This document shows, piece after piece, positions 1,558-37,710 of a DNA stretch of 62,099 nucleotides. This DNA is from an uncultured Alphaproteobacteria bacterium (GTDB lineage Bacteria; Pseudomonadota; Alphaproteobacteria; Methylaequorales; Methylaequoraceae), in contig CACODD010000003.1 of assembly GCA_902625895.1 (NCBI GenBank), forward strand, positions 1 to 62,099, read 5' to 3'. Every line of letters starts with the position of its first letter. Position 1 is the stretch's first letter. Position numbers and translations under genes: made by a program. Under the pieces are notes generated by a model that was not told the origin of the DNA, searched no databases, and saw only the letters and a program-made list of their open reading frames with translations.

Positions 1558-1637
1558 AGTTTCTAAACAATAGAGCTTTTAGCTAAATAAATTTCCTTTT
1601 AGGTCGTAAATATAATATTAACAGTGGTTCGTGGAAT

Positions 1638-4331: not shown

Positions 4332-4383
4332 GATGTTATATGTTTATTTTGAAGGTAAGAGAGTGATATTATAAAATAATATT

Positions 4384-5973
4384 ATGAAGTTTTGGTTTCA
4401 CATATTAAAAGAAAGTAACTCTCTAAATACTATTCTTTTATTGACTTTTTTTATCACTATAATGGGTTTATTAAGCCCAATCTTTATCATTCACATTTTT
4501 AATAGATATATCGCATTTGGCCTTCAGGGAACATTGTTTTTTCTATTATCAGGTGCTCTTTTAGTTGCAGTATTCGAGTATATATTTAGGAATATTAGGA
4601 GTAAAATCTTATGTGAACTTCTCATAAATCCAATAAAATTTTTTAAATTAGACCTAATCAAAACATTTTTTGAGAGAGAAAATAAAACCTCAAAAAGAAA
4701 TTTTGTTGAAATAATTGATTTCAACAATAATTTTTTTCAATTCTTATCACCTAAAGTTCAGTCAAATATTCTCGACTCAATTTTTGCAACTTTGATTATT
4801 ATTATTCTTTTTTTTCTGGACCTATTATTAGCAACAATTTTTTTAATTCTTGTTATTATTTTCTTGTTGTTGCAACAAAGATTAATAAAAAATAAAAATC
4901 TAAACCTGGAAAAATTAAATTTATCTAAGAATGATAAATTAATAATTAAAGAGATTGGAACTAATCAAGAGCTTTTAAAATCTACTTTAGCATTTAAATA
5001 TTCTGGATATTATCTAGAAAATTACTTAAATAAAAAATTAAAAATTGACTCTTCAACTGCAAATTTTGATGCTCAACAAATATCCACAACCAGTTTTTTT
5101 GTTTTGCTATCATCAATTATTACAATTGGATTTGGGAGTATCTTTGTCGTGAATGGGAATCTTTCTATTGGTAGCCTGATAGGATTCAACATATTTGCTA
5201 CTCGAGCTTTGGGTACAATTTCATCGGCACAAAATTCATATTCTATCATTGAGAGAACAAATATGTATCTTAATGATTGCCAAGATTTTTTCAAAAACTC
5301 TAAAAATAGAGTTGAGGGTATGCAACTAAGTAAAATTATAGGGAATTATAAACTTAAAAATATCAACTATTCTTTCGATAATGATAATAAGTATATAATT
5401 AAAAATTTCTCTGCTAATTTTAATTCTTCAGAAATTTCAGTTATTAGCGGAGCGAATGGCTCCGGAAAGACCACAATTGCAAAATTGCTCATGGGACTAA
5501 TTAATCCAGAATCTGGAGATATTTTATTAGATGAAACTAATTTGGAGAAACTATCATTGCAATGGTATAAGAATAAAGTAGCTTATATACCTGAAGATGT
5601 TGAAGTGTTAAATTCATCAATTTTAAATAATATTTTAATATCCAACCCTGATCTGAATGAACAAGAGGTTAGTAGACTGCTTCAAAATGTTGGATTAGAT
5701 AAAGAGTTAAAAAAATCAGATTTAACAATAACTGATTCTATAAATAAAAATTATTCAAAAGGGATTTTAAAAAAAATACATATTGCACGGTCGATTTCAA
5801 AAACCTATCAAGTTTATATTTTTGATGATCCGTTATTATATCTAGATAAATTAGGTAAAAATATGGTGCTGAAATTGATAGCCTCATTAAAAAGAGCTGG
5901 AAAAACCGTAATTTGTTTTTCAGAAGATTCTGAAATTATTAAACTAAGTGATAAACAAACTAATTTAGGGTGA
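4384..5973 (+). CDS. T1SS-type ABC exporter (TMD+NBD, no N-terminal peptidase/CLD domain) with non-canonical NBD motifs
   Basis: Hydrophobic N-terminal half. Walker A is GANGSGKTT. The signature position reads YSKGI, Walker B reads IFDDP and the H-loop position reads SED. It sits directly upstream of the HlyD gene. Confidence 0.8.
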   Translation: MKFWFHILKESNSLNTILLLTFFITIMGLLSPIFIIHIFNRYIAFGLQGTLFFLLSGALLVAVFEYIFRNIRSKILCELLINPIKFFKLDLIKTFFERENKTSKRNFVEIIDFNNNFFQFLSPKVQSNILDSIFATLIIIILFFLDLLLATIFLILVIIFLLLQQRLIKNKNLNLEKLNLSKNDKLIIKEIGTNQELLKSTLAFKYSGYYLENYLNKKLKIDSSTANFDAQQISTTSFFVLLSSIITIGFGSIFVVNGNLSIGSLIGFNIFATRALGTISSAQNSYSIIERTNMYLNDCQDFFKNSKNRVEGMQLSKIIGNYKLKNINYSFDNDNKYIIKNFSANFNSSEISVISGANGSGKTTIAKLLMGLINPESGDILLDETNLEKLSLQWYKNKVAYIPEDVEVLNSSILNNILISNPDLNEQEVSRLLQNVGLDKELKKSDLTITDSINKNYSKGILKKIHIARSISKTYQVYIFDDPLLYLDKLGKNMVLKLIASLKRAGKTVICFSEDSEIIKLSDKQTNLG

Positions 5974-5977
5974 AAAG

Positions 5978-7249
5978 ATGACAGAGAAATGGGTAAAATG
6001 GAATTTATTTAAAAACGATGAAAAACCAAAAAACGTTATTAGTAAAAGACTTAAAGTATCATTAATTCTTTTCTCACTTATTTTTTTGCTACTAGTGAAT
6101 TTAAAAATTATTGAGGTATTAAGCTTAGCTGACGGAAAAATAATACCCCAAGGAAGAATGAAGTATGTACAACATTTGGAAGGTGGAATAGTTGAAGAAA
6201 TATTAATTAGTGAAGGTGAAAAGGTTGAGATAAATCAACCTTTGGTTATTTTATCGAAAGAAAAAGCAAGCTCTGAATTTGAGGAGATTAACTCAAGACT
6301 TAAATCAATTGATCTGTCGATACTAAGAGTTAATTCTGAAATAAATTCTAATAATTCAATAGAAATTCCTGAAAATAAAAATGACTTATTTGATGAGGAA
6401 TTAGTAAAATCTGAAAATGAACTTTTTCAAAGTAGAAGAAAAGCAATCAACTCTGAAATAAAGTCAAAGAAAGCAAGTATTGATAAAGCTAATAAAAATC
6501 TCAAAAATTTAAAAAAAAGATTAACAATCGTAAAAGAACAAGAAGATATCAGTCAAAAATTATTAGAAGTCGAGGCAACAAATAGGTTAAAGCATTTAGA
6601 AATTTTAAGAGAAAGGCAAGAGGTTGAAGGAAGTATCGACGAACAACAATCTATAATTGATTTGAGCAAGAATGACTTAGAAAAAGTGCAAAACAATTAT
6701 ATAGAAGAATTAAATATCGAGTTGTCACAGTACAAAAAAGAAAAAGAGGAACTTAATAAAAGAATTCAGAAATATTCAGACAGCTTAAATAGAACCGTTT
6801 TAAAAAGCCCTGTATCTGGAACAGTAAAACTTGTGTCAGTAAATTCTAAGGGAGCTATAGTCGCTCCTGGCGTGACTGTTGTTGAAATTGTACCTGAAAA
6901 TGAAAAACTAATAATTGAGGCAAAATTACCTTTATCAGAAATTGGATACGTAAAAAAAAATCTTGAAGCAAAAATTAGACTGAATACACCTGAAGGCTCT
7001 AGGTTTAGATCAATAAAAGGGAAAGTTGTATTTGTAGGCGCTGACAGAATTTCTGGTAAAGATGAAGAGGGTTTTTATTTAGTCAAGGTGGAAACCTCTG
7101 AAAACTCTTTTGCACGAAAAAACGAGGAATATAAACTTTTGTCTGGTGTTCCAGTTATGGTTGGTATTATAACTGGTAAAAGAAGTTTTATGGATTATTT
7201 CTTAACGCCTTTTATAACCGGTGCAAGCTTTGCATTATCTGAAAGGTAA
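5978..7249 (+). CDS. HlyD-family type I secretion membrane fusion (periplasmic adaptor) protein
   Basis: N-terminal TM segment, GKIIPQGR..VQHLEGGIV lipoyl-like start, long coiled-coil region, and C-terminal SGTV..PG..V.IVP and GKRS..DYFL motifs typical of T1SS adaptors. Confidence 0.85.
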   Translation: MTEKWVKWNLFKNDEKPKNVISKRLKVSLILFSLIFLLLVNLKIIEVLSLADGKIIPQGRMKYVQHLEGGIVEEILISEGEKVEINQPLVILSKEKASSEFEEINSRLKSIDLSILRVNSEINSNNSIEIPENKNDLFDEELVKSENELFQSRRKAINSEIKSKKASIDKANKNLKNLKKRLTIVKEQEDISQKLLEVEATNRLKHLEILRERQEVEGSIDEQQSIIDLSKNDLEKVQNNYIEELNIELSQYKKEKEELNKRIQKYSDSLNRTVLKSPVSGTVKLVSVNSKGAIVAPGVTVVEIVPENEKLIIEAKLPLSEIGYVKKNLEAKIRLNTPEGSRFRSIKGKVVFVGADRISGKDEEGFYLVKVETSENSFARKNEEYKLLSGVPVMVGIITGKRSFMDYFLTPFITGASFALSER

Positions 7250-7250
7250 A

Positions 7251-7550
7251 TTATTTTACAGAAGATTTGGAAATTGTTTCAGATTTGAAAATTACGCCGT
7301 TTTTTTGAGAATTGAGTTTTAAATGTTTGTAAAGCTCATCAAAAATAACATTTCCTTTTCTTTCTTTGACAATGAGAGTAAGAATGTCTGCTTCACTAGC
7401 ATCACCAAATTGCTGTATGTCAAACATATCTGTGGCTCTACCATTAGCATAACCGACTGAAATAACGTCTGAGTTTTCAGAAAACTTTTTAACAACTTTT
7501 TGTCCTAAACCTTTTTTTATTAAGCCACCAATTTCAACAAACTTTGACAT
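7251..7550 (-). CDS. Small hypothetical protein, possibly a second divergent PII-like partner
   Basis: 99-aa ORF 2 nt downstream of the PII-like gene. The C-terminal ILTLIV..GVIFKSE pattern loosely resembles the PII beta-alpha-beta fold. The functional call is weak. Confidence 0.45.
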   Translation of the reverse strand: MSKFVEIGGLIKKGLGQKVVKKFSENSDVISVGYANGRATDMFDIQQFGDASEADILTLIVKERKGNVIFDELYKHLKLNSQKNGVIFKSETISKSSVK

Positions 7551-7552
7551 AT

Positions 7553-7909
7553 TTATCCTCCAGCTCGTTTAATGACATCTTTAGGTATATATGTCGCAAC
7601 TCTGTCAAGTTTAACCATCCACATTATGCCTTTACCAGGTGTATCAAGATTTCCGGCTAAATACATTGATTCAAAGACTCTGTTCGATTGTTCTTTAGAA
7701 ACTATAATTCTTATTATTTCTTTTTGTTCATCTATAGTTACTCCAAGAAGTCCCATTCTATCCCTAATGCCTGTACCCCTGGCATAATTAATTGTTGCAC
7801 CTTGGGCTCCAACACTGGTGGCAGCATCTATGATTTTGTCGGCTAGACCACTTTCAACAACACAAGTGATTAAAAAAACGTCTGTTAAATAAGTGATATC
7901 TCTGGCCAT
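7553..7909 (-). CDS. PII-like (GlnB-fold) signal transduction protein
   Basis: 118 aa. The layout (FLITCVVESGLADKIIDAA..GAQGATI..ARG.G, ..IIRIIVS......VFESM...) matches PII-family proteins that accompany DUF1538 membrane proteins. Confidence 0.65.
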   Translation of the reverse strand: MARDITYLTDVFLITCVVESGLADKIIDAATSVGAQGATINYARGTGIRDRMGLLGVTIDEQKEIIRIIVSKEQSNRVFESMYLAGNLDTPGKGIMWMVKLDRVATYIPKDVIKRAGG

Positions 7910-7925
7910 AATTTTTTCCTTTTAG

Positions 7926-9623
7926 TTATTTTTTTTGTTTAAATTGTATATATAGTCCCATTAGGAGTACAGCAAGAATTGGACAAATACTTGCCATTGA
8001 TAGAATACCAAAACCTTCAGTGGCGGATACAGCATTTCCTAGACCCAGACCCATAGCCAGAACAAGTGGTACGGTTACCGGGCCGGTTGTGACTCCAGCG
8101 CTGTCCCAGGCGACATTAACAAATTCTTCAGTTGAAAAGTAAGTTAAAATAATTGCAAGAAGATAAAGTGGTATTAAAACGGTTGCTAAGTCAAAAGCAA
8201 ATACAATTTTTCCAACACCTAAGGCTATCCCAAATGCAACACCCCCGGCAACGCTATACATTAACATTGACTTTTTGAAAGCACCATTGGTAAGCTCTTG
8301 AACTGTCAAACCAAGGGCATTAAGTGCTGGCTCAGCAAGTGTTGCTCCAAATCCTAAGAGCCAAGCAAAAAGAATTACTATAGTTAAACCCAATAATTCG
8401 TTATAAATTGGTGATACTTCACTTATTGGGACTTCCATAAAGGCAGCAGGAAGATTGGTTCCAGCTTGTCCACCTATAGCTCCTAAACCATATGTGAGTC
8501 CTATATTGAAGACACACATCCCAACAATGGACAAAGTTAACCCATAAGTTGTTATCATGTTGTTAGGAAGTTTAGATCTAAGGATTATAAAAAGCACAAT
8601 CATTAAAAATATCACAAGTGGAAGTATCGCTCGAACTCCTCCAATAATTTCAACAAACGGGGTTTGTGACCATTTAGAAACCTCTCCTATGGTCATATCT
8701 GAAACCATACTAGTCGAAGCAATTATTTCCTCAACTGAGATTGTCTGAGAAACATGTATAGCGAGAATCAGAACAGCTATAATTGGAAATAATGAAGCCA
8801 TTGTAACGACGCCGAAACCAGAAAGAGATGAATCTCCTTTACCAGCTGATGCTGCAATTCCAATACCTAGTGATAGCACAAGAGGTACAGTAACTGGTCC
8901 AGTTGTAACAGCACCACAATCCCAAGCTAATCCGAGAATAGTTCTTAAATCAGGATTACTCCATACATATGCAGTAAGAATTATTGTTGGTGTAAGAGCT
9001 GCATAAATCATAGGTTTTAGAGACCAACCTTTGACAAACCTAATCGTTCCAATTATGGCTGCTAGTCCAACACCAGCACCGACCATTACAACTAAGGTTT
9101 CACTTCTATTATTTAGTATCTCATACAGATACGGTGCGTCCTGAGGGTTTATTGATGAACCAAATGCTTTGAGTGCTCCAATAGCTGGTTCCGCATAAGT
9201 TACCCCCACCCCAAGTATTCCAATAATAATTAAAACAAGAACCATTGGTGCTTTTTTTGGTAATGTATCACCAATTACATTGCCAAATGGCATTAAACCG
9301 GTTTTAAGACCTTCCATAAAAATTGCTAGGCCTATTATTACTGCAATTAATCCTAGACAAATTGTTGTCGCTGAAGAGATTGGTTGTCTTAAAATTAAAA
9401 GTTGAAACAGAAATAAATATGCTGCAAGTGGAACAACAGCTTTAATTTGTTCCATAACTCTAGAAATCGTGTAAGGTGCTAATAAAGTAAGTGCCTTGGC
9501 AGGTGATACTTTTATTTTCTGAGGCTTTAGTGATTTTCCTTTAGCTGCCTTCGGCGTAAGAAGGTTATAACTTAAAGATTTATGATTTATCTCTGATTCG
9601 TGAATGTAATCGGAATATTTCAT
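7926..9623 (-). CDS. Polytopic membrane protein with internal duplication (two DUF1538-like halves)
   Basis: The motif AWDCGAVTTGPVTVPLVLSLGIG recurs as AWDSAGVTTGPVTVPLVLAMGLG about 270 aa later. The protein has many TM segments. Confidence 0.7.
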   Translation of the reverse strand: MKYSDYIHESEINHKSLSYNLLTPKAAKGKSLKPQKIKVSPAKALTLLAPYTISRVMEQIKAVVPLAAYLFLFQLLILRQPISSATTICLGLIAVIIGLAIFMEGLKTGLMPFGNVIGDTLPKKAPMVLVLIIIGILGVGVTYAEPAIGALKAFGSSINPQDAPYLYEILNNRSETLVVMVGAGVGLAAIIGTIRFVKGWSLKPMIYAALTPTIILTAYVWSNPDLRTILGLAWDCGAVTTGPVTVPLVLSLGIGIAASAGKGDSSLSGFGVVTMASLFPIIAVLILAIHVSQTISVEEIIASTSMVSDMTIGEVSKWSQTPFVEIIGGVRAILPLVIFLMIVLFIILRSKLPNNMITTYGLTLSIVGMCVFNIGLTYGLGAIGGQAGTNLPAAFMEVPISEVSPIYNELLGLTIVILFAWLLGFGATLAEPALNALGLTVQELTNGAFKKSMLMYSVAGGVAFGIALGVGKIVFAFDLATVLIPLYLLAIILTYFSTEEFVNVAWDSAGVTTGPVTVPLVLAMGLGLGNAVSATEGFGILSMASICPILAVLLMGLYIQFKQKK

Positions 9624-9660: not shown

Positions 9661-10128
9661 TTATTCAACATGACTTGTTGACCTCTCTAATCTGTAAAGA
9701 ATTTGTTTTGTTATTTTTTTTATTATTTGATTCTCTGACTCTATTATCTGATCTATTTCATCATGTGAATAAAGTACATTTTGAAACTCATTTCTTTTAG
9801 CAAGTTCTTTACATAAATTTAAAATTACCTTTTGGGCGGCCTTTGAACCAGAATTAATTAGCTCATCAAGATTTTCTTTACTAATAGATATTAACTCTGT
9901 AGATTGAGCTGATGTAATAGTTGCACTTCTGTTTTGTTTTAATATCAAAGCCATTTCACCAAAAACCTCTCCATCTCTCATAGATCCAACTTTTTTTCCG
10001 TCAACTAGTACATCAAGGACTCCAGAAACTATCATGTATGCTTTATCACCTTTGTCTCCTTGATTAAAAAGCGTCTCACCTTCTAACATCAAAATTTTTG
10101 TTGTTTTTCCATGACTAACTTCTTTCAA
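9661..10128 (-). CDS. Stand-alone cyclic-nucleotide-binding domain protein
   Basis: The phosphate-binding cassette FGEMALILKQNRSATITS is present. A short helical tail (QILYRLE) follows and there is no HTH. Confidence 0.8.
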   Translation of the reverse strand: MKEVSHGKTTKILMLEGETLFNQGDKGDKAYMIVSGVLDVLVDGKKVGSMRDGEVFGEMALILKQNRSATITSAQSTELISISKENLDELINSGSKAAQKVILNLCKELAKRNEFQNVLYSHDEIDQIIESENQIIKKITKQILYRLERSTSHVE

Positions 10129-10565
10129 GAAAATATCCTTTGAGATAATCTATAGTGAATCTGTAAAGCTAAAGCTCTTATTACGTTAGGAGAGTCCTTA
10201 GTTAGCTTTACAAGATCGGCTTTGGTAACTGGAAGTTTTTGGTTATCGGATTTTCCTAATTCCTTTGACATTTCATTAATTACTTTATGAAGATCTATGT
10301 TGGAGGATAATAAAATAGCTTCCAACGCCTTTCTTTTTATTTCAACGATTTCACTTGGTACAATAGCTTTTATACTCGCAGTTCTATTTTCATTAAGAAT
10401 TAAAGACAATTCTCCAAAGATTTCACCTGTTTCAATTTTCCCTATTTTTTTTCCTTCAATTTCTGCAACTAATCCACCTGAGACAACTAAAAAGGCTGTT
10501 TCTCCTTTATCTCCCTCTCGAACAATATATTGATCTGGAAGAACTCTTATCTTTTTTAAACTCAT
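10125..10565 (-). CDS. Stand-alone cyclic-nucleotide-binding domain protein (paralog of the next gene)
   Basis: FGELSLILNENRTASIKA cassette and a QIHYRLS tail. It overlaps the downstream paralog by 4 nt (ATGA). Confidence 0.8.
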   Translation of the reverse strand: MSLKKIRVLPDQYIVREGDKGETAFLVVSGGLVAEIEGKKIGKIETGEIFGELSLILNENRTASIKAIVPSEIVEIKRKALEAILLSSNIDLHKVINEMSKELGKSDNQKLPVTKADLVKLTKDSPNVIRALALQIHYRLSQRIFS

Positions 10566-10578
10566 TTAAACCTTTTTT

Positions 10579-12954
10579 TTATTTAGAAGTTGCAACAAAA
10601 ACACCATCCCAATCTTTTGGGGGAGGATGCTTTTTATATTCATTAATTCTTTCTGTCATCATTTCATAGTAATCTTTCATTAAACTTTTACAAAGTGTTT
10701 TTGCCTGAGTCATTTCCTCGATAGCATCTTTCCAATTTTGATTAAAATAGAGATTTAAAACATTTTTATGCTTTTTTTCAAGATTTTTGAAATCAACACT
10801 ATTTTTAAAACTTGGATCACCAAGCAAACAAAAAATTGATACAGCTTCTTTTTTTCCTTTTACTGCTAACATATCAAGTTGGAGCGTAGCATAAGTATCT
10901 TTAACAGCATCGTTTGTTTCTTGCCCAATAACTGTTTTAACTCCATAACCTTTTGATTGACCTTCAAGACGTGATGCTAGATTGACTGCGTCTCCCAATA
11001 CTGAATAGTCAAATCTTTGATCTGACCCCATATTTCCAACAACACAACCTCCAGTATTTAGTCCAATTCCAATTTTCAATTCCAAAAAATCTTTATTTTC
11101 TGACTTTGCTTCCTGTTCTCTTATATCGTTAAGTTCCTTAAGTGCTTTGTGCATGCTCAATGCTGCTTCACAAGAAACTTGCTCGTGTTTATCGACATCT
11201 ATAGGTGCATTCCAAAAAGCCATAATACAATCACCCATATATTTATCTATTGTTCCATTTTTATTTATGATTTCATTTGTAAGAGGAGTTAAAAATCTAT
11301 TTATAAGTTTTGTAAGGCCTTGAGGATCGGATTTAAAAGCTTCTGAAATTGTTGTAAAACCTCTTACATCACAAAAAAGAAATGTCATTTTTTTTGTTTC
11401 TCCACCCAACACTAATTTATCAGGATCTTCAGCTAATTGCTCTACTAAAGCAGGGGATAGATATTGAGAAAATGCACCCCTTATTTGTTTTTTCTCATTG
11501 GCATCTCGTAAGTAGTTTGCAAAGGTGTTACTAAAATAAATTACAAAAGTTGTTACACCTGCAAAGGTTGGATCAAATAAAGTTTTATGTTCAGTAAATA
11601 ACCTTACACTAATATAAAATGCAGAACTTATTATGGTTACAAGTAATGAAATATTTACAATTGGACCAAACCTTAATGCAGACACTGTAATAAATAATGC
11701 AAGCAAAATTGTAAAGAGTGCTTCATAAAATTTCATATTTGCACCAGATTTCAAAAAAGGTGATCCTGAAATTTTAACTTTGTTTTTTTCAATTATTGCT
11801 TCTTCTTCACTTAAACCTTTTTTTAATGCTTCTTTATAAACTTTTTCAGAATTTTTTGTAGATGTATAATAAAGAATTGCTGAAATGACTGTATCAATAA
11901 GATTTGCATGAATTTCAACACCTGGCATTCTTTCATCGACTGGAGTGGGTCTAATATCCTTTAATCCAGTGGCCGATGTGCCTAATATACCAAGTTTTCC
12001 TTGTAATCTATCTTTGCCAACCCTTCCTTTAATTATATCCACTGCACTTACATAATATCTTGATTTACCTTCTTTAACTTTTCCAGCATCTGAATCACCA
12101 TAATAAATCCACACTCTACCATTCTCATCAGTCGGAATAGCAGCATTACCAATAGCTTTAGTTTGAATTATTATTTCTTTAATTCCCGTCAAACCTGTCC
12201 TAGTGGCAATACTATTTCCTTGAAACGCAACCCTTATCATATCAAGTCCAAGAGTTGGTCTGATTTCACCTGCAACATTTGATATTAAGGGTACTCTTCT
12301 AATAATTCCATCTGGTTCCTGTGCAACTGAAACTGTACCAGATCCAGAGGCAGCTTTTTCAAACTCTGTCACATTAGCAAGTAATCCAGGATAAGATATC
12401 AACCATTCCTTTGGATTTTTACCTTTGCCAACAAAAACTTTTACAGATGAATCGTTTATATCATTTCTGTTTGCATCACCTTCTACATCCAAGCCAGAGT
12501 GCCCGATTACTACAGGAAAGTCACTCATAGCTTCAGTGGCTAAAAACTCATTAGAAGGAAGTTCACTTAATAATTTTGCAATAGTTGGATTTCGTTTTTC
12601 TAAATCTTGAGAAATTAAGTCAGGTGAAGTTCTGTCTTTTTCTGCAAAGAGAACATCTAGACCTAAAACAAGCATACCTGACTCTTTAGATTTTTTAAAA
12701 AGATCAGCAAGTACAGTTCTTGGCCATGGCCATTGACCGATTTCTCTTAGAGATTTTTCGTCAATATCTACAATTACGGAGTAAGTTTGACCGTCTGTAG
12801 ATCTTGGAAATTTTTTTTGAAGAACATCAAAATATTTAAGTCGTAGAACTTCTACTATTTCAGGATCAGCTATTCGAATCAAACCAAAAAGAATTGCCAT
12901 TACTAAAGAGGCAATAGTAACAATAAGTCTAAAACTTAGCTTTAATTTAATCAT
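10579..12954 (-). CDS. CHASE2-domain class III adenylate/guanylate cyclase (Lys/Asp pair suggests adenylate cyclase)
   Basis: N-terminal TM, a large periplasmic-type domain, then 3 TM segments. The catalytic domain reads FLFCDVRGFT..DKYMGDCIMAFWNAP..FDYSVLGDAVNLASRLE. Confidence 0.9.
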   Translation of the reverse strand: MIKLKLSFRLIVTIASLVMAILFGLIRIADPEIVEVLRLKYFDVLQKKFPRSTDGQTYSVIVDIDEKSLREIGQWPWPRTVLADLFKKSKESGMLVLGLDVLFAEKDRTSPDLISQDLEKRNPTIAKLLSELPSNEFLATEAMSDFPVVIGHSGLDVEGDANRNDINDSSVKVFVGKGKNPKEWLISYPGLLANVTEFEKAASGSGTVSVAQEPDGIIRRVPLISNVAGEIRPTLGLDMIRVAFQGNSIATRTGLTGIKEIIIQTKAIGNAAIPTDENGRVWIYYGDSDAGKVKEGKSRYYVSAVDIIKGRVGKDRLQGKLGILGTSATGLKDIRPTPVDERMPGVEIHANLIDTVISAILYYTSTKNSEKVYKEALKKGLSEEEAIIEKNKVKISGSPFLKSGANMKFYEALFTILLALFITVSALRFGPIVNISLLVTIISSAFYISVRLFTEHKTLFDPTFAGVTTFVIYFSNTFANYLRDANEKKQIRGAFSQYLSPALVEQLAEDPDKLVLGGETKKMTFLFCDVRGFTTISEAFKSDPQGLTKLINRFLTPLTNEIINKNGTIDKYMGDCIMAFWNAPIDVDKHEQVSCEAALSMHKALKELNDIREQEAKSENKDFLELKIGIGLNTGGCVVGNMGSDQRFDYSVLGDAVNLASRLEGQSKGYGVKTVIGQETNDAVKDTYATLQLDMLAVKGKKEAVSIFCLLGDPSFKNSVDFKNLEKKHKNVLNLYFNQNWKDAIEEMTQAKTLCKSLMKDYYEMMTERINEYKKHPPPKDWDGVFVATSK

Positions 12955-14675
12955 GGTTCTGCAAAACTATTACCAAGAGTTCTTATGAGTGGATAAATAA
13001 AATACGTAATTAATCTTCTTTGCCCAACTCTAAACTTTCCTGAAACTTTCATTCCTGGCATTAAATTAAATCCTGGAGGAATATCTTTTAACTCATTTTC
13101 TGTTATTTGAGCCCTAGCTCTATAAAAATTTCCAGGTTTTCCATCGACATCTTTATCAATTGTGTCAGCAGAAACATAAATAAGCTTTCCTTTTAATTCA
13201 CCATGTTTTTGTGCTGGAAGAGCATTAAGTTGAATTTTAACAGATGTATCCGGAATTAGTTTACTAATATCAGAAGGGTCAACATCAAAAACAGTTAATA
13301 ACTCCACACCTGTTGGTACCAATGTTACAACACTTTTACCTGGTGTTATTACTGCTCCAGGGTATAGAGAATGAAGGTCTAGAATCATTCCGTCAGAAGG
13401 CGCTCTGACCACGACATCAGTTTGTTGTCTTTCAAGTTTTTTAACATCCTCTTGTAGCGACATTCTTTGATCTTCTAACCCAACAAGCTCATCGTTTATT
13501 CCTCCAAAAAATTGGCTGTTATATTCTTTTCTATTAGATTTTAATTCGCTTAGTTTATTGCTAGTTTTTGTAAATTCTTTTTCTAAAGATAACCTTTTAT
13601 TTTTTTCAGCTAAAACTTGTGACTCTGCTACAAGATCAAGTTCAAACAACTCCAACTTTGAATCTTCCAGCTGTTTTTGTATATCAAGTTGTTCCTTGAT
13701 AAACTTTAAATCGTCTTCAGTGGAACCTATTTGTTGATCTAATGAAGCAATCTTTGCTAAATATTGGTCTTTTTTATCTTTAAAGATTCGACTTTGTCTT
13801 TCGTCATTTGGATTTGCAACCGAAACATTATTTCTTAACAATGACTGCTTTCTTAGTCTATCAATTTTTGAATTTACAACTGAAAGCTGATAATCAAGTT
13901 TCATTTTATCGGCTCTTTGTAGTGTAGCATCGAAAGTTACGAGTGGGTCTCCTTGATTTACACTCTCGCCTTTTTTTACAAGTATTTCTTTGACAACAGA
14001 ATTATAGTTTGATTGTACCTCTACATTTGGGACAACGGTGGTAATCTTTCCAGAAGCAGAAATTGTAGTGTCAATTTCCGAAATAGTGCCCCAAGTAATT
14101 AAAAATAAAATAAGGAAACCAAATGAATAGACTGACATTTTTACTGAACTTGGTACCTGCTTTGTTTTAATTCTATCAATGTCGTCATCAAATTCATCTA
14201 ATAATTCACTCATCATTTTTTTTTTTGATCTATTTTCTTTTTCTTCCTCAGTTAAAACTTCTTCTTGATCTTTGTTATTCTCATTTTCATTTCCAGATTC
14301 AAAAGCATCCACAGATAATTTTTCGTTTGCATTTCTGGCATAGCTTGCAAGTTGCTGCATCATATTGAAAGCTGTTTGTGGAGAGTTTTTGAGATATCCT
14401 AGTAAAGCATTTTGATCAATTTCTTTTACCGTTGTCTCAACTGTCGCTCTTGCCATTGCACTTCTTGGTTGTTTGTCAATTAATGCCATTTCTCCAAACA
14501 ACGCACCTTTTTCAAGTATTGACAGAGTTACGTATTCGTCACCGTTGAATTTGCATACCTCTATTTTCCCTTTTACTATTTGATAGGCATAGTCACCAAC
14601 TTCACCTTCTCTAAAAAGCACATCACCAGCAGCTAAATTTCTAACAGCGGGTTGAATATTTTTTTTTTCAGCCAT
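12951..14675 (-). CDS. HlyD-family T1SS adaptor with N-terminal cyclic-nucleotide-binding domain
   Basis: Residues 1-125 form a cNMP domain (FGEMALIDKQPRSAMARA). An acidic linker and a TM follow. The rest has HlyD features (GKITTVVPN, coiled coil, GMILDL..PGAVITPG, RRLITYFIYP). Confidence 0.85.
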   Translation of the reverse strand: MAEKKNIQPAVRNLAAGDVLFREGEVGDYAYQIVKGKIEVCKFNGDEYVTLSILEKGALFGEMALIDKQPRSAMARATVETTVKEIDQNALLGYLKNSPQTAFNMMQQLASYARNANEKLSVDAFESGNENENNKDQEEVLTEEEKENRSKKKMMSELLDEFDDDIDRIKTKQVPSSVKMSVYSFGFLILFLITWGTISEIDTTISASGKITTVVPNVEVQSNYNSVVKEILVKKGESVNQGDPLVTFDATLQRADKMKLDYQLSVVNSKIDRLRKQSLLRNNVSVANPNDERQSRIFKDKKDQYLAKIASLDQQIGSTEDDLKFIKEQLDIQKQLEDSKLELFELDLVAESQVLAEKNKRLSLEKEFTKTSNKLSELKSNRKEYNSQFFGGINDELVGLEDQRMSLQEDVKKLERQQTDVVVRAPSDGMILDLHSLYPGAVITPGKSVVTLVPTGVELLTVFDVDPSDISKLIPDTSVKIQLNALPAQKHGELKGKLIYVSADTIDKDVDGKPGNFYRARAQITENELKDIPPGFNLMPGMKVSGKFRVGQRRLITYFIYPLIRTLGNSFAEP

Positions 14676-14680
14676 TTAAA

Positions 14681-16852
14681 TTACCCGGCCTTTTTTAAAG
14701 ATTTAATTTTGTTTTCAACACCTAAAATAGACATTTGCTTATTATACGTCTTACCAAAATAGCCTGAGGTCTGTCTAAGTTCTTCAAAAGAACCTTGTTG
14801 AGATATTTTTCCTTTTTCAAGTACAAAGATTTTATTACAAAGTCGAAGGTGCCAAACTCTGTTTGACACGATAATAATCGTTCTACCAAGAGCAATATCT
14901 GATAATGCATCATATAATTTTATTTCACTATCAACGTCAAAACCTGTGAAAGCATCATCTAGTATCATGATACGAGGGTTTCTAATAAGTGCTCTAGCGA
15001 TTGCTAGTTTCTGTCTTAAACCAGTTGCTAGGTTTGTAGCGTTTTCTTCAAGAAATGTTTCATATCCATCGGGATAAGACTCTATTTCTTCATGCGCAAA
15101 AACTTTTTTGGCAGCCCACGTTATCCTGTCCATAGAAGAATTTGGCATTGCACTTGCTATTGTTTCTCTTATTGTTCCAGGAAAAAAATAACTATCTGTT
15201 CCGACCAATGAAACCTGTGATCTTACATGACTAAGGTCCAGTAAACGAAGATCTATATTATCAAGGGCTACGATGCCAGCTTGCGGTCTATACAAACCTT
15301 GAATCAGTTTTGCAATGGTACTTTTCCCACAGCCACTTTTACCAGTGATACCAATTATTTGTCTTGGATTAATTTCAATATCAACATCATTTAATACTTT
15401 TGTATTATCGTCGTAGCCGAACTCAACATTTTTAAAAGTAACCTGTCCCATTAGTTGAGGTTTTTGGCCCTTAACAGTTGTTTCGGAGTTTGCATCCACT
15501 ATTCCTGATATGATCTGAAGAGACTGAACTAATTTTGTTATTTCTGTTTTAAGAGTAACTAGATCAATTATTGGTTTTGAAACTCTGCCGGCTAGCATAT
15601 TAAAACCTACTAAAATTCCAGCTGAAAGAGAACCAGAAAATACAAGATGCACCCCAACAAAAATGACCATCGCTGTCATTAGTTGATTTATGGTTGATGA
15701 AATGTTGTTTAAAACTGCTGACTTTTTTTGCATTTCTTCATTTGCAATAATATAATTAGCTTCCAAATCTCTCCACTGATCTTTTAAATTAGGCTCAAGA
15801 GCAAGTCCCTTTACATTCTCAATTCCGTTAACAGCAACAGAAATAAATTCTTGTCTTTTTGATTCAGCCTTACTTAAACCAGCGAGTGAGTCTCTTTGTT
15901 TTTTCGAGTAAAACATTGATGCTAAAGCTCCTAAAATACTGAATGAAAACACAACAATAAATAGTAATGGACTATAAAAAAATAAAATTGGAACAAAAAC
16001 AAGTAAACTAATTGAGTCTAGTGCTGTTGAGAAAACTTTTTGAGTCAGAAGGCTTTTGATCTGAGATATTTGACCTGTGAATCTCAAAAAAGTTGCTGAT
16101 TCTTTGTGAAACCTTTGCATTGGTAAAGCAATTAATTTTTCAAAAACTTTAACTGAAAGTTTGGCTTCAACTTTTTGTGAGAAAAAATCAAGAAGATATG
16201 ATTTTAAATACCCAAGTATTCCATTAAATACATACGCAACAACTACACCTGAAGTTATAACATATAAAGTTGAATAAGCTTCATAGTTTACAACCTTATC
16301 CAAAACTAACATCATGAAAACAGCCGGTATAACTGCGAAAATGTTTAAAATCAAAGCTACGATTACAACTTGAACCATAACAGATTTGTTCCTAAATGAC
16401 TCGCCAATTAACCATCCAATTTTTAATTCGCTGTCTTCTTCGAATTTTTTCAGTTTAGCTTTAAGAAGTATTACTTCTCCGTTCCAGCCTTTTTTTAATT
16501 CTTTTAAATTAATTTGTTGAGGTTTAGGACTGGTAACACCAGTATCAAGGCATAAAACTGACTTATCATCATCTTTTTCACCTTGAATAACTCTTAAAGC
16601 TATTATGTATCTTCCATTTTTAAGTCTTAAGATTTGTTGTTTTTTAGATAAGAGCTTTACTAGTTCTTTATCGCTAATTTTGGTTGCTTTTGCTTTTAAA
16701 TCAAAGGATTGAGCTAGTTCACACATTTCAGTGGTTCTAAGCTCTCTATCTTCAATTTGAAATCTTTCTGGAATATCATTTGGACCAATATGAACCCCTA
16801 GTTGTCTTGCAACTAGAATAATTGATTTTTGAGAACCTCGCATCGCTTCCAT
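14681..16852 (-). CDS. HlyB-like T1SS ABC exporter with N-terminal C39-like domain (no catalytic Cys) and non-canonical NBD motifs
   Basis: The N-terminus aligns by eye with the HlyB CLD (GPNDIPERF, LKAKATKISDKEL, GRYIIALRV). Walker A is GKSGCGKST. The signature reads LATGL, Walker B reads ILDDA and the H-loop reads SNR. Confidence 0.9.
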   Translation of the reverse strand: MEAMRGSQKSIILVARQLGVHIGPNDIPERFQIEDRELRTTEMCELAQSFDLKAKATKISDKELVKLLSKKQQILRLKNGRYIIALRVIQGEKDDDKSVLCLDTGVTSPKPQQINLKELKKGWNGEVILLKAKLKKFEEDSELKIGWLIGESFRNKSVMVQVVIVALILNIFAVIPAVFMMLVLDKVVNYEAYSTLYVITSGVVVAYVFNGILGYLKSYLLDFFSQKVEAKLSVKVFEKLIALPMQRFHKESATFLRFTGQISQIKSLLTQKVFSTALDSISLLVFVPILFFYSPLLFIVVFSFSILGALASMFYSKKQRDSLAGLSKAESKRQEFISVAVNGIENVKGLALEPNLKDQWRDLEANYIIANEEMQKKSAVLNNISSTINQLMTAMVIFVGVHLVFSGSLSAGILVGFNMLAGRVSKPIIDLVTLKTEITKLVQSLQIISGIVDANSETTVKGQKPQLMGQVTFKNVEFGYDDNTKVLNDVDIEINPRQIIGITGKSGCGKSTIAKLIQGLYRPQAGIVALDNIDLRLLDLSHVRSQVSLVGTDSYFFPGTIRETIASAMPNSSMDRITWAAKKVFAHEEIESYPDGYETFLEENATNLATGLRQKLAIARALIRNPRIMILDDAFTGFDVDSEIKLYDALSDIALGRTIIIVSNRVWHLRLCNKIFVLEKGKISQQGSFEELRQTSGYFGKTYNKQMSILGVENKIKSLKKAG

Positions 16853-16884: not shown

Positions 16885-16917
16885 AAAAAAAAAACCCCCT
16901 TAGAAACTCTAAGAGGG
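16885..16917 (-). terminator. Rho-independent terminator between the P/G/M/D-rich gene and the ABC exporter gene
   Basis: Minus strand: CCCTCTTAG-AGTTT-CTAAGGGGG (9-bp stem with one G-U) followed by T10. Confidence 0.75.
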
Positions 16918-16941
16918 TTTTTTATCTATAGAAGTATAGGT

Positions 16942-18102
16942 TTAAACTACCTCACCACCGTCATTTGGGTCGTCTGGTGGCGGAGGTACATCGGCTGGCA
17001 TATCACCAGGCATTGGCCCAGGATCTCCAGGAGGAGGCCCTTCTGGACCTTGATGTGCTCCTGCATCGTCCATGTGAGTATGCATATCACCCATTCCATC
17101 TGGAGGAGGCATATCACCTGGACCACCAGGTCCGCCATCCATTGGCCCTGGTTGACCCATCGGATCACCTGGAGGCATATCACCTGGTGGCGGTCCACCA
17201 GCTGGCCCACCTTCACCAAATAATGGATCTGGCCCTTCACCACCAGGAGGTGGCGGAGGCATTCCGTCTCCATCCATATCCATGCCTGGAGGTGGTCCGT
17301 CAGGTCCCATTGTCCCTGGTCCCATATCAGGAGGAGGAGTTCCTGGTCCGAATTCTGGTCCACCTGCCATATCACCTGGAGGAGGTCCATCTGGTCCTGG
17401 CCCAAAACCGCCCTCTGGATTAGGTGGTTCTCCCATAGGAGGTCCCATTGGTTCTCCATCTGGTCCAAAAGCTGGCCCATCTGGTTGAGGTCCGCCTGCC
17501 ATATCACCTGGAGGAGGTCCGTCTGGTCCCATTCCGCCTGGTCCCATATCACCTGGAGGAGGTCCGTCTGGTCCCATTCCACCTGGTCCCATCTCACCTG
17601 GAGGAGGTCCATCTGGTCCCATTCCAGCTGGTCCCATATCAGTCATTGGTCCTGGTTCCCATGCACCTGGCATAGCACCAGGATCGAATTCTGGTCCACC
17701 TGGAAAATCACCATAAGGTGGTGCTCCATCCATCATTGGACCAAAATCCTCTGGTGGTGGAGGGAAATCGCCTGCCATGTCCATACAAGGCATATCACCG
17801 GGAAACTCTGCCATATGAAAATCTAACGCACCGCCAACAGCATCAAATGCATCCATTGGAGGTGAATCAGGATTTGCTGCCATATGAGCATCAAAAGCAC
17901 CCTGTGCAACGTCTGCGATATTATCCATCATTTCTTTTGGCATACCAGCATCCGCCATAAAATTCATTGCTGCTCCCATACCTTCTCCGAAGGCTGCACT
18001 AGGGTCAGCAGCGAAGTCAGCCGCTTGAAATGGACCCATAGCTGCATCGCCAGCGGCTTCAGCAAAAGCTTCCATTTCAGGTGGCAAAACAAATTCTGCC
18101 AT
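16942..18102 (-). CDS. Pro/Gly/Met/Asp-rich low-complexity protein (no signal peptide, no RTX repeats); possible T1SS cargo
   Basis: 386-aa ORF with AAGGA 8 nt upstream of the ATG. The N-terminal about 110 aa are non-repetitive. The rest is built from GPDGPPPGDMGPGGM-type repeats. A terminator follows immediately. Confidence 0.75.
   Translation of the reverse strand: MAEFVLPPEMEAFAEAAGDAAMGPFQAADFAADPSAAFGEGMGAAMNFMADAGMPKEMMDNIADVAQGAFDAHMAANPDSPPMDAFDAVGGALDFHMAEFPGDMPCMDMAGDFPPPPEDFGPMMDGAPPYGDFPGGPEFDPGAMPGAWEPGPMTDMGPAGMGPDGPPPGEMGPGGMGPDGPPPGDMGPGGMGPDGPPPGDMAGGPQPDGPAFGPDGEPMGPPMGEPPNPEGGFGPGPDGPPPGDMAGGPEFGPGTPPPDMGPGTMGPDGPPPGMDMDGDGMPPPPPGGEGPDPLFGEGGPAGGPPPGDMPPGDPMGQPGPMDGGPGGPGDMPPPDGMGDMHTHMDDAGAHQGPEGPPPGDPGPMPGDMPADVPPPPDDPNDGGEVV
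17495..17641 (-). repeat. About three tandem 45-bp units encoding GGMGPDGPPPGDMGP
   Basis: Units at 17495-17539, 17540-17584 and 17585-17629 are near-identical. A partial fourth follows, and dispersed copies occur elsewhere in the ORF. Confidence 0.85.
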
Positions 18103-18215: not shown

Positions 18216-19541
18216 TTACTTTTCAATTGTTTCGAAATTGAGAATTCCGCATAGTTTTAATAATTCGAAGGATGAAATAATAAGTTGATATTGTGCGTTC
18301 ACTAAATTTGATTCAGAATTTGTTAGTTCTTTTTGTGCATCTAAAATTTCTAATGTTGTTCTGGTACCAACACTTGCTTCTTTAGTTACTCCCTCAACTG
18401 CCATTAAATTTGACTCAACCGAAACCTCAAGAGAATCTATACTTGATTTTGAACTTTCTATTTTCTTCCATGCCGAATTAATTTGAAATTGTAAGTCAAG
18501 TTTTTTTGTCTCAATTGATTTAATGACGGTGAGAGCAGAATCTTTGGATTTTTCTAAATTCAAAAAATTATGTCCTTTGTTAAATAATGGAACTGTAACA
18601 TTTGCAGTTACTGAGAATGAATCTGTTCTTTCAACCGTTCTTGAGGAATCAAGTGATTTTCCTACTGAACCAGACAAAGAAAATTCTGGTGCAAAATTTA
18701 AATTATTTTTTCTTACATCCAATTTTGAGTTCATAAGTTGTAATTTTAATTTTCTATAATCTGGGTTCTTTTCTAAGCCTGTTTTTATTGAATCGTCCAA
18801 AGATTTTGGAAGTTTTGGTATTTGACCAAATTTTAACCAATCTTTTGGATTGGCGTCGACAATTTGGGCATTATTGGAATCAAACCATTTAATATCCGGA
18901 TCTCTTCCGACAATTGTTTTAAAATCAGAAATTGAAATTTCTAAGTTATTTTCAGCCTCTATTCTCTTTGAAGTAGCACCTGCTAATCTTGCTTTAGCCT
19001 GAAAAACGTCAGTTTTAGTAACATCTTTAAATTCGAATCGCTTTTCTGCAGCATTTAGTTTTTTTTCAAGAGTTTCTTCGTTCCTTTTTGAAACATCTAA
19101 AAGAAAATAATCCTTTAGAACAGTATAATAGGCTTTACTAGCTTTAAATAAAACATCTTGGACTGTTGCGTAAAAGGTTAACTTTGCGATGTTCACGTTA
19201 TTTTTAGCTTGCTTGAAATTTATAGCCTTTGTGTAACCTAAAGGTTGAGATAAATCTAAGTCGAACGTAGTTGGGTTGATAGCGCTATCATTAATTCGAG
19301 ATGTATCAGGGTTGCTTTTTGAAATTTTCCTTCCTTGTGATGCAGATAAATCAAGAGATGGTAGAAAATCTGTTTTTGAAATTTTTAAATCTTTTTCTGA
19401 AATTTTCAGTTCTGTTTTACTTTTTTCAATGTCGGGATAAAACTTATATGCATCTTTTAAAACATCGGAGAGTTCTTCAGAAATTGAAATAATAGGAAAA
19501 AATATTGATGCTAAGATAGCCAGATTAAGTTTGGATTTCAC
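18216..19541 (-). CDS. tolC: TolC-family outer membrane efflux/secretion protein
   Basis: Signal peptide, two-repeat architecture, typical N-terminal L.D.L..AY..YPDI and LPSLDLSAS motifs, 441 aa. Confidence 0.85.
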   Translation of the reverse strand: MKSKLNLAILASIFFPIISISEELSDVLKDAYKFYPDIEKSKTELKISEKDLKISKTDFLPSLDLSASQGRKISKSNPDTSRINDSAINPTTFDLDLSQPLGYTKAINFKQAKNNVNIAKLTFYATVQDVLFKASKAYYTVLKDYFLLDVSKRNEETLEKKLNAAEKRFEFKDVTKTDVFQAKARLAGATSKRIEAENNLEISISDFKTIVGRDPDIKWFDSNNAQIVDANPKDWLKFGQIPKLPKSLDDSIKTGLEKNPDYRKLKLQLMNSKLDVRKNNLNFAPEFSLSGSVGKSLDSSRTVERTDSFSVTANVTVPLFNKGHNFLNLEKSKDSALTVIKSIETKKLDLQFQINSAWKKIESSKSSIDSLEVSVESNLMAVEGVTKEASVGTRTTLEILDAQKELTNSESNLVNAQYQLIISSFELLKLCGILNFETIEK

Positions 19542-19667: not shown

Positions 19668-19744
<77 letters not shown>

Positions 19745-21000: not shown

Positions 21001-21077
<77 letters not shown>

Positions 21078-37634: not shown

Positions 37635-37710
37635 TGGTGCCGCTTGAGAGATTTGAACTCCCGACCCACTGATTACAAATCAGTTGCTCTACCAACTGAG
37701 CTAAAGCGGC
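37635..37710 (-). tRNA. tRNA-Thr (anticodon UGU)
   Basis: The reverse complement GCCGCTTTAGCTCAGTTGGTAGAGCAACTGATTTGTAATCAGT...AAGCGGCACCA folds as a cloverleaf. The anticodon loop is TTTGTAA. Confidence 0.9.

Follow-up and report, generated by a model that had tools for sequence, protein, structure and literature searches.

Type I secretion systems (T1SSs) are usually described as being triggered only by their substrate and regulated by transcription. In the HlyB-HlyD-TolC system of E. coli, both substrate recognition and the recruitment of TolC depend on the cytoplasmic N-terminus of the adaptor HlyD (10.1101/2025.05.27.656419; PMC8277102), and a charged motif in this tail, R34-E38, which makes contact with HlyB, is essential for recruiting TolC (10.1101/2025.05.27.656419). 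We have analysed a T1SS locus in a 62,099-nucleotide stretch of DNA from an uncultured alphaproteobacterium of the family Methylaequoraceae (GenBank assembly GCA_902625895.1, contig CACODD010000003.1, positions 1 to 62,099; hereafter the window). A gene at 12951..14675 on the minus strand encodes a 574-residue protein in which a cyclic-nucleotide-binding (CNB) domain is followed by a linker, a transmembrane (TM) helix and a HlyD-type T1SS adaptor. The initial annotation of this stretch had placed cargo sensing and TolC recruitment in the cytoplasmic N-terminus of HlyD, which the work on R34-E38 bears out (10.1101/2025.05.27.656419), and had proposed that a ligand sensor at this position makes assembly of the channel ligand-dependent. 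We lean by a modest degree towards the view that the adaptor bears a cytoplasmic N-terminal receptor for a cyclic nucleotide, most likely cyclic AMP (cAMP), that gates secretion.

The closest precedents for a T1SS with a proposed second-messenger receptor on its adaptor put the CNB domain on the ABC transporter or on stand-alone proteins. HetC of Nostoc PCC 7120 carries a CNB domain on an ABC exporter, where it is required for function in vivo (PMC10986499). In cyanobacterial bacteriocin clusters, CAP_ED domains occur on 'long-type' ABC transporters and in a stand-alone double-CAP_ED protein, alongside a HlyD component that is in every case plain type_1_hlyD (PMC4558948). These CAP_ED-C39 exporters resemble the window system in having a CNB fold covalently attached to the cytoplasmic side of an exporter of the ABC/membrane fusion protein type. 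They differ from it in that their CNB domain lies on the ABC protein before an active C39 domain and their adaptor is plain, whereas in the window the CNB domain is on the adaptor and has a canonical phosphate-binding cassette (PBC), and the C39-like domain of the ABC protein is dead. The window ABC protein has no Pfam match to cNMP_binding and, as it bears neither a CNB domain nor the catalytic Cys and His, the system was rejected as a HetC-like exporter. Genomic coupling of CNB proteins to exporters is also seen for the double-CNB 'bacteriocin-type transport-associated protein' TIGR03896 and for CNB genes by LssB/LssD-like T1SSs, but these are separate soluble proteins. The fusion is not a TIGR03896 protein (29.9 bits against a cutoff of 161.05), having a single CNB domain fused to an adaptor; nor is it a CRP/FNR regulator, since HTH_Crp_2 is missing and the CRP model covers only residues 13-125 with 40.7 bits against a cutoff of 266. 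A link between cAMP and a T1SS is reported for the Shewanella adhesin BpfA, through cAMP-CRP and LapD-type control by cyclic di-GMP (PMC8938473). Control in that system acts by transcription and by periplasmic proteolysis or retention of the adhesin and, unlike that proposed for the window system, involves no receptor built into the translocon.

With the E. coli Hly system (8DCK, 7SGR and 5C21) the window system shares a homologous adaptor body, TM helix and juxtamembrane motif, a non-catalytic C39-like domain on the ABC protein, a TolC partner, and a cargo gene upstream of the ABC gene with a hairpin between the two. The differences lie in the cytoplasmic segment, which in HlyD comprises about 59 residues (an amphipathic helix and a charged cluster) and in the fusion about 157 residues before the juxtamembrane motif, in a cargo candidate without the GGxGxD repeats of RTX proteins, and in an operon that adds a cyclase and further CNB proteins. 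In the sources that name them, the fusion proteins go by no other names than 'HlyD family type I secretion periplasmic adaptor subunit' or 'hemolysin D', and full-text literature searches, limited in scope and so no proof of absence, found no description of a CNB-adaptor fusion.

The architecture originally proposed from the sequence, a complete cNMP domain at residues 1-125 joined by an acidic linker to a single TM helix and a canonical adaptor body, is confirmed by profiles and by structure prediction, and Pfam and NCBIfam agree with the proposed split. The gene was taken from the list of open reading frames (ORFs), and its ATG, read in the sequence, lies 5 nt past the stop codon of the upstream ABC gene. 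PF00027 (cNMP_binding) matches residues 12-97 with 70.4 bits (gathering cutoff 27.5, E 1.3e-19), and TIGR01843 (type_I_hlyD) matches residues 178-573 with 222.6 bits, above its curated cutoff of 208.65. In sequence searches of the PDB, residues 10-128 match dozens of CNB domains, among them those of PKG, PKA-R, CRP-family regulators, Bd1971 and SthK (60 CNB chains with E <1e-6 to the N-terminus), and residues 180-571 match E. coli HlyD in the HlyB/HlyD complex 8DCK (E 1.4e-26), the alignment starting in the HlyD TM helix at residue 60. An AlphaFold2 (AF2) model built from 38 diverse fusion sequences (mean predicted local distance difference test score, pLDDT, 85) places a CNB beta-barrel at residues 11-86, the PBC helix at 62-67, alphaB at 88-97 and alphaC at 99 to about 116, with a pLDDT of about 90 over residues 11-110. 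Residues 117-165 are modelled as disordered (pLDDT <50), and a TM helix at 176-198 is followed by an adaptor body with lipoyl and beta-barrel domains and a very long alpha-hairpin (251-419). Foldseek comparison of the full-length model, in which matches are dominated by the adaptor body, found resemblance to EmrA, MacA and HlyD structures.

On these grounds the protein can be divided into segments, all on the minus strand. The CNB domain (residues ~8-116, 14328..14654) is delimited by PF00027, the PDB matches, pLDDT and conservation, and contains the two motifs quoted in the initial annotation, GDVLFREGE at residues 17-25 and FGEMALIDKQPRSAMARA at residues 60-77. The acidic disordered linker (residues 117-157, 14205..14327), marked by low pLDDT and low identity, varies in length and sequence across the family. 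It leads to the juxtamembrane motif LLDEFDDDIDRIKTKQVPS (residues 158-176, 14148..14204; family consensus 'F.xD...IE....P'), about where the HlyD alignment starts, and to a single TM helix (residues 177-198, 14082..14147) that was predicted as a helix, was found in a hydrophobic-window scan and aligns with the HlyD TM helix. The periplasmic adaptor body with its lipoyl, alpha-hairpin and beta-barrel parts (residues 199-574, 12954..14081) is recognized by TIGR01843, by the 8DCK HlyD match and by Foldseek. HlyD homology begins before the TM helix, in that LLDEFDDDIDRIKTKQVP (residues ~158-176) pairs with E. coli HlyD '..NEFLPAHLELIETPVSRRP' and with a family-wide 'EFxPDxxxIExxxxP'; thus, of the cytoplasmic tail of HlyD, only the distal portion gives way to the CNB domain and linker. 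The predicted topology of a cytoplasmic N-terminal sensor, a single TM anchor and a periplasmic body holds in the model. By profile, predicted topology and ABC/TolC gene context the protein is a HlyD-family T1SS adaptor, with a predicted role in export.

A reading in which a small CNB gene has been wrongly joined to a HlyD gene through an artefact of sequencing, assembly or gene calling has a negligible probability and was rejected on the comparative data. The analysis produced no sign in its support, and stand-alone CNB genes beside HlyD genes do exist in other taxa. The initial annotation had named two genes joined by a sequencing error, or absence of the fusion from related genomes, as the ways in which it could prove wrong; neither was found. 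A continuous frame of 574 codons is present in the window, and a word-indexed search matched 662 relatives, of which the best 120 of 662 clusters are all 572-623 residues long and at least 82% identical, with PF00027 and adaptor domains. These best 120 clusters were drawn from ENA, NCBI, JGI, Logan and Tara data and derive from independent single-amplified genomes (SAGs), metagenome-assembled genomes (MAGs) and long-read assemblies. The same length and architecture recur in at least 40 divergent clusters. When 1.84 billion representatives were searched exhaustively and without a profile, about 35 clusters (at 50% identity) aligned from residue ~10 to 574 at just 25-39% identity, and both cNMP_binding and HlyD_3 were present (Pfam) in 43 of the 49 distant proteins tested. 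Moreover, unfused loci place the CNB gene downstream of the HlyD gene, not upstream.

The fusion is present in many related and unrelated genomes. Among marine, low-GC Alphaproteobacteria, full-length copies at 74-99% identity occur in SAGs and MAGs under the titles 'Alphaproteobacteria bacterium' and 'Rickettsiales bacterium' (99% in AG-349-G20 and AG-337-K15), and copies at 28-37% identity in at least Magnetococcales, Magnetovibrio, Nisaea, UBA4588 and several Rhodospirillaceae/Rhodospirillales genomes. This taxonomic list is a lower bound, as about two-thirds of the 80 loci listed in the scan of reference genomes, which was run with a 10-sequence subset of the alignment, were unrelated CNB proteins caught via the PBC pattern. 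The gene context of related loci, designated here by L numbers, was examined by phmmer searches of the window proteins against six-frame ORFs.

The features of the CNB domain that are most conserved are those expected to touch a ligand. The PBC (residues 60-77, 14445..14498 on the minus strand, with G61, E62, R71, S72 and A73) was defined from the alignment of 38 fusions and from the cassettes of PKG and of the S. meliloti cAMP-binding regulator PDB 7PZA, whose FGEMALLDGQPRSADATA is nearly identical to FGEMALIDKQPRSAMARA. The canonical pattern G-E-x-A-L...R-[ST]-A is found in FGEMALIDKQPRSA at residues 60-73. In the alignment of 38 fusions, whose identity to the window protein is 23-82%, no N-terminal column is invariant other than G36, G61, E62 and R71; F21, E23, G24, Y31, A73 and A77 are nearly so. 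In canonical CNB domains, residues of the E62 and R71 type touch the ribose 2'-OH and the cyclic phosphate. Over 120 close homologues the CNB domain is the best-conserved region, with a mean identity to the window protein of 92%, followed by the adaptor body (90%), the juxtamembrane motif and TM helix (83% each) and the linker (55%). Invariant ligand-contacting residues in a conserved domain on a variable linker are, as judged from the alignments, the mark of a ligand-binding domain that is functional and flexibly tethered.

A domain of this fold could instead serve mainly for structure or docking, by oligomerization through its C-helix or by giving the cyclase, the cargo or the small CNB proteins a surface to dock on, with ligand secondary or constitutive and no gating of secretion. 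The AF2 model has a long alphaC (residues 99 to about 116 and beyond), the adaptor is expected to be hexameric and two extra CNB proteins are co-encoded, as such a role would suggest; a long alphaC of this kind resembles the dimerization helix of CRP. The invariant positions, however, are ligand-contacting residues and go beyond structural glycines, and a scaffold has no need of E62 or R71. We consider this explanation unlikely.

The gene context points to cAMP as the likely ligand. Directly downstream of the fusion lies gene 5 of the array described below (10579..12954, minus strand), which encodes a CHASE2-sensor class III (IIIb-like) adenylate cyclase identified by the Pfam domains CHASE2 and Guanylate_cyc. 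The start codon of the cyclase gene and the stop codon of the fusion gene share an ATGA, read directly in the sequence, an overlap that couples the two genes translationally. PF00211 is matched with 70.3 bits, and sequence tests found the class III features, including the metal-binding Asp residues. Among PDB entries the cyclase domain best matches two adenylate cyclases, P. aeruginosa CyaB (3R5G, 119.5 bits) and Spirulina CyaC. The motif GTIDKYMGD carries a Lys that is Glu in the guanylate cyclase Cya2 (2W01), and DYSVLG carries a Ser that is Thr in CyaB and CyaC. As both the adenylate-cyclase signature residues and the closest matches agree, the expected product is cAMP. Two stand-alone CNB proteins follow on the minus strand, CNB protein A (gene 6, 10125..10565; 146 residues, PBC FGELSLILNENRTA, PF00027 56.7 bits), which is kept in all close relatives, and CNB protein B (gene 7, 9661..10128; 155 residues, PBC FGEMALILKQNRSA, PF00027 64.9 bits). 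The latter is missing from L006-L008 (74-76% identity), which hold only type A between the cyclase and the DUF1538 gene, whereas the window and its closer relatives have both; this absence marks it as dispensable or recent.

Several points weigh against the reading of the adaptor as a cAMP receptor that gates secretion. Ligand binding by the CNB domain is a prediction from sequence throughout the family. The cyclase adjoins the fusion only in the window lineage, with a further instance upstream in L021 together with the DUF1538, PII-like and p99 genes, and most distant fusion loci have no cyclase within 10 kb, so that a dedicated cyclase is not general. The linker, at 40-50 residues disordered and with 55% mean identity, offers no defined structural path from the ligand site to the membrane part, and the AF2 model is of a monomer, with contacts to the ABC protein outside its scope. 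A crude neighbour-joining tree of adaptor bodies groups the fusions coherently in several places, but its deep branches lack resolution and some of its non-fusion entries are truncated gene calls; such a tree supports a claim of neither a single nor multiple origins of the fusion. Finally, the sole characterized exporter CNB domain, that of HetC, was stabilized by neither cAMP nor 2-oxoglutarate and bound ppGpp with a dissociation constant of 59 uM (PMC10986499).

The HetC result, the distant loci that have no adjoining cyclase and the diversity of ligands bound by CNB folds of the CRP/FNR family (PMC10986499) would all suit a domain that senses another ligand, such as ppGpp or GTP as reported for HetC, or a different metabolite, and ties secretion to nutritional state and not to the neighbouring cyclase. 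Set against this, the canonical G-E...R-S/T-A residues are invariant in the fusions and match those of proven cAMP and cGMP binders, and the window lineage encodes both a coupled adenylate cyclase and two more canonical CNB proteins. The case for a different ligand is accordingly a slim one in our estimation.

Further support for a relationship between CNB domains and T1SS adaptors comes from loci in which the two are not fused. In L022-L026, L029 and L030 (Rhodospirillales and Methylocystaceae), two LssB-like ABC genes precede a plain TIGR01843 adaptor (406 bits), which is followed, after a few hundred bases, by a separate single-domain CNB gene for a protein of 115-125 residues (e.g. L023:9803-11239 and 11551-12120). 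The PBC of these proteins reads FGEMALIDxxPR(M/A)A, with PRMA or PRAA in place of PRSA, so that the Ser/Thr is replaced. They score 46-63 bits to the CNB domain of the fusion, as against 24-37 bits for the small CNB paralogues of the window itself, and because they outscore these paralogues the comparison argues for a functional link between CNB proteins and T1SS adaptors that predates the fusion or extends beyond it. Linkage of an adaptor to a cyclase is likewise apparent without fusion in L027, a Bradyrhizobiaceae MAG (1-3733 and 5563-6390), where the gene for a plain T1SS adaptor shares an overlap with that for a CHASE2 cyclase (scoring 630 bits to the one in the window) and has two CNB genes in its vicinity.

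If the adaptor is a cAMP-responsive gate, secretion could be controlled as follows. The CHASE2 cyclase would sense a periplasmic or external cue and make cAMP, which in lineages without a local cyclase would come from the cellular pool. The cAMP would bind the CNB domains, six per translocon if stoichiometry follows that of HlyB/HlyD, lying beside the nucleotide-binding domains (NBDs) and C39-like domains of the ABC protein. Binding would move the alphaB/alphaC lid, whereupon the tethered CNB domain would bind or free a partner surface, possibly on the ABC protein (NBD or C39-like domain), on the C-terminal signal of the cargo, or on the adaptor's own juxtamembrane or charged segment. Since the linker is disordered and poorly conserved, such a bind-and-release domain on a tether is favoured over rigid allostery into the TM helix. 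The change of contact might license or block, with either sign of effect, the engagement of cargo and the bridging to TolC, and the outcome would be a fast, post-translational gating of cargo secretion by a second messenger, the cargo being acidic and rich in Met, Pro and Gly. The proposal of ligand-dependent channel assembly stands in part. Control of the machine by a ligand is made more plausible by the coupled cyclase, the invariant ligand residues and the stand-alone CNB genes at unfused T1SS loci, whereas no support was obtained for assembly of the channel as the specific step.

The candidate cargo is the product of gene 2 (16942..18102, minus strand), a hyper-acidic, low-complexity protein of 386 residues rich in Pro, Gly, Asp, Met and Ala, with a net charge of -66; it was chosen by position and composition and has no Pfam or NCBIfam match. 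In 11 of 18 fusion loci, both close (L005, L008, L009, L010 and L012) and distant (L014, L016, L018, L020, L021 and L031), the ABC gene is immediately preceded, on its own strand, by a hyper-acidic ORF rich in Met, Pro, Gly, Ala and Asp. The distant ORFs are located at L014:6664-7665, L016:4891-6612, L018:6116-7057, L020:1-684, L021:5470-6726 and 6987-7550, and L031:3-371. In L006, L007, L015, L017 and L019 the contig ends before this position, with a 140-residue fragment of a compositionally similar ORF kept in L015. A clear cargo was not identified in the Magnetococcales locus L011, where a TolC gene directly precedes the ABC gene, or in the GC-rich L013. In one Rhodospirillaceae locus the cargo-like gene is separated from the ABC gene by a gene for a true Crp-type regulator with both CNB and HTH_Crp_2 domains (L016:6748-7488, minus strand), which the profile scan applied to the fusion also recognized.

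The cargo-like proteins have net charges of -50 to -96, no Pfam or NCBIfam match, and repeats that include MGPDGPPPGDM, MPPDAMGGMTADHMGNMPPHAMEGM (in L021) and GDMTGC. Neither the candidate nor any of the cargo-like proteins has the GGxGxD repeats of RTX proteins, and this identity was rejected. A loose C-terminal pattern, 'MD-A---QG ... (D/E)DP-xG-end', is shared among them, which as an alignment of low-complexity sequence is weak evidence; such a shared C-terminus would fit a C-terminal T1SS signal. Met/His-rich repeats such as MPPDAMGGMTADHMGNMPPHAMEGM presumably resemble Cu-binding motifs of the MxxM type. The ABC-fusion pair was found in every fusion locus with upstream DNA present and, because this pairing and the upstream acidic ORF recur across distant fusion loci, the conserved core as seen in these comparisons is a three-gene module of cargo, ABC protein and CNB-adaptor, in which the cargo is a candidate.

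A terminator scan found a strong terminator-like hairpin (16889..16923, minus strand), with a 16-bp stem and a T-run, in the gap that separates the ABC gene from the gene of the candidate cargo. Such sites are not enriched in the region (5 in 13.5 kb, as against 8.3 expected from shuffled sequence), but the stem of this one is the longest by far. A hairpin between cargo and ABC genes is an arrangement known from hlyA-hlyB, and its presence here suggests attenuation that would yield more cargo than transporter, as in that system. A promoter scan of the region gave fewer matches than shuffled sequence and was not used.

The ABC protein itself (gene 3, 14681..16852, minus strand) is a HlyB-like T1SS exporter with the Pfam domains Peptidase_C39, ABC_membrane and ABC_tran, the first of them degenerate. 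Its best NCBIfam match is TIGR01846, at 492 bits below the cutoff of 725.55. The N-terminal domain aligns with the C39-like domain of HlyB (3ZUA), lacks Cys throughout residues 1-40 and has 'GRYII' in place of the 'GRHFI' of HlyB. As the catalytic Cys and His are missing, it is read as a non-catalytic, substrate-docking domain and not as a leader peptidase, and a peptidase-containing transporter that cleaves a leader peptide was rejected on the same ground. An NHLP/bacteriocin exporter was also rejected, with TIGR03794, TIGR03796 and TIGR03797 all far under their cutoffs. The outer-membrane partner would be the TolC-family channel encoded by gene 1 (18216..19541, minus strand), which matches PF02321 (OEP, E 7.7e-57) and, with 222.5 bits, falls just under the cutoff of TIGR01844 (225.15).

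The fusion is the fourth of ten genes in a tightly packed co-directional array on the minus strand, with gaps of -4 to 37 nt from the fusion to gene 10. The whole array is kept in relatives at 74-99% identity, those at 74-76% having just one small CNB gene. Its tail (7251..9623, minus strand) consists of gene 8, a DUF1538 membrane protein with fused UmpA/UmpB-like halves (7926-9623; Pfam and NCBIfam DUF1538), gene 9, a PII-like protein (7553-7909; a weak PF00543 match on the orthologous products in L001-L004), and gene 10, which encodes a protein of 99 residues (p99) and ends the array (7251-7550). This trio recurs near the fusion in the distant genomes of Magnetovibrio (L014:3873-6310) and UBA4588 (L021:1895-4298), within 4-8 kb of it, or about 3.5 kb away in the case of L014. 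The exact PII-like sequence was found on at least 1000 contigs. That the PII-like protein is linked to cAMP, as is the PII-like SbtB, is a guess on our part.

An array with three CNB domains, a cyclase, and PII-like and DUF1538 proteins has the look of a signalling island, and the DUF1538-PII-p99 trio is found near distant fusions too. One could suppose from this that signalling runs in reverse, with the tethered CNB domains acting as a local sink for cAMP or reporting translocon occupancy to a cAMP network of cyclase, small CNB proteins and PII/DUF1538. This we hold to be very improbable, because the only universally conserved partners of the fusion are the ABC gene and the upstream cargo-like gene, not signalling genes, and the CNB domain carries no output domain except the adaptor.

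Elsewhere in the window, a second, divergently oriented T1SS lies at 91-7249 on the plus strand, in an arrangement that is kept in relatives L001-L012. Encoded here, all on the plus strand, are a Pro/Gly-rich protein bearing RTX-like repeats (91-1557), an 897-residue RTX-repeat protein (1638-4331) whose orthologue in relatives has a weak FecR match, a PrtD-type ABC protein that lacks an N-terminal domain (4384-5973) and, last, an AprE-type adaptor (5978-7249). GC content peaks over the genes for Pro/Gly-rich proteins, at 1-4 kb and at 16-18 kb. A tRNA gene on the plus strand (19668-19741) lies at the upstream edge of the ten-gene array, between the TolC gene and a Sel1-repeat gene, and two others on the minus strand are at 21004-21077 and 37638-37710; no rRNA gene was found within the window. 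The remainder is ordinary chromosome, with genes for RecQ, MetG, an acetolactate-synthase-like protein and aldehyde dehydrogenases.

The fusion of a CNB domain to a T1SS adaptor is real and robustly conserved. Its interpretation as a ligand-operated gate is plausible and is now better supported by context, with the mechanism unproven. In a wider form, a whole T1SS family in abundant marine Alphaproteobacteria would be gated post-translationally by cAMP through the adaptor receptor, wired in the window lineage to a CHASE2 cyclase that senses the environment, and would release on demand a hitherto unrecognized class of hyper-acidic, disordered proteins rich in Met, His, Pro and Gly that may bind extracellular metal (e.g. 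copper) by their MxxM/MxxxM-type repeats; we put this forward as a doubtful but conceivable extension. Should the adaptor prove to have a built-in second-messenger receptor, it would constitute a direct and rapid control point at the cytoplasmic tail of the adaptor, which is structurally its least understood part. With a likely ligand, two residues of interest (E62 and R71) and a cargo candidate, the system provides a handle on how the adaptor tail couples cargo recognition to TolC recruitment. A T1SS that can be switched by cAMP, if this is what the fusion provides, might also be of use for controllable protein export in biotechnology. The system belongs to a very abundant marine lineage, and its conserved candidate cargo family is new and may affect trace-metal or surface chemistry in the ocean.

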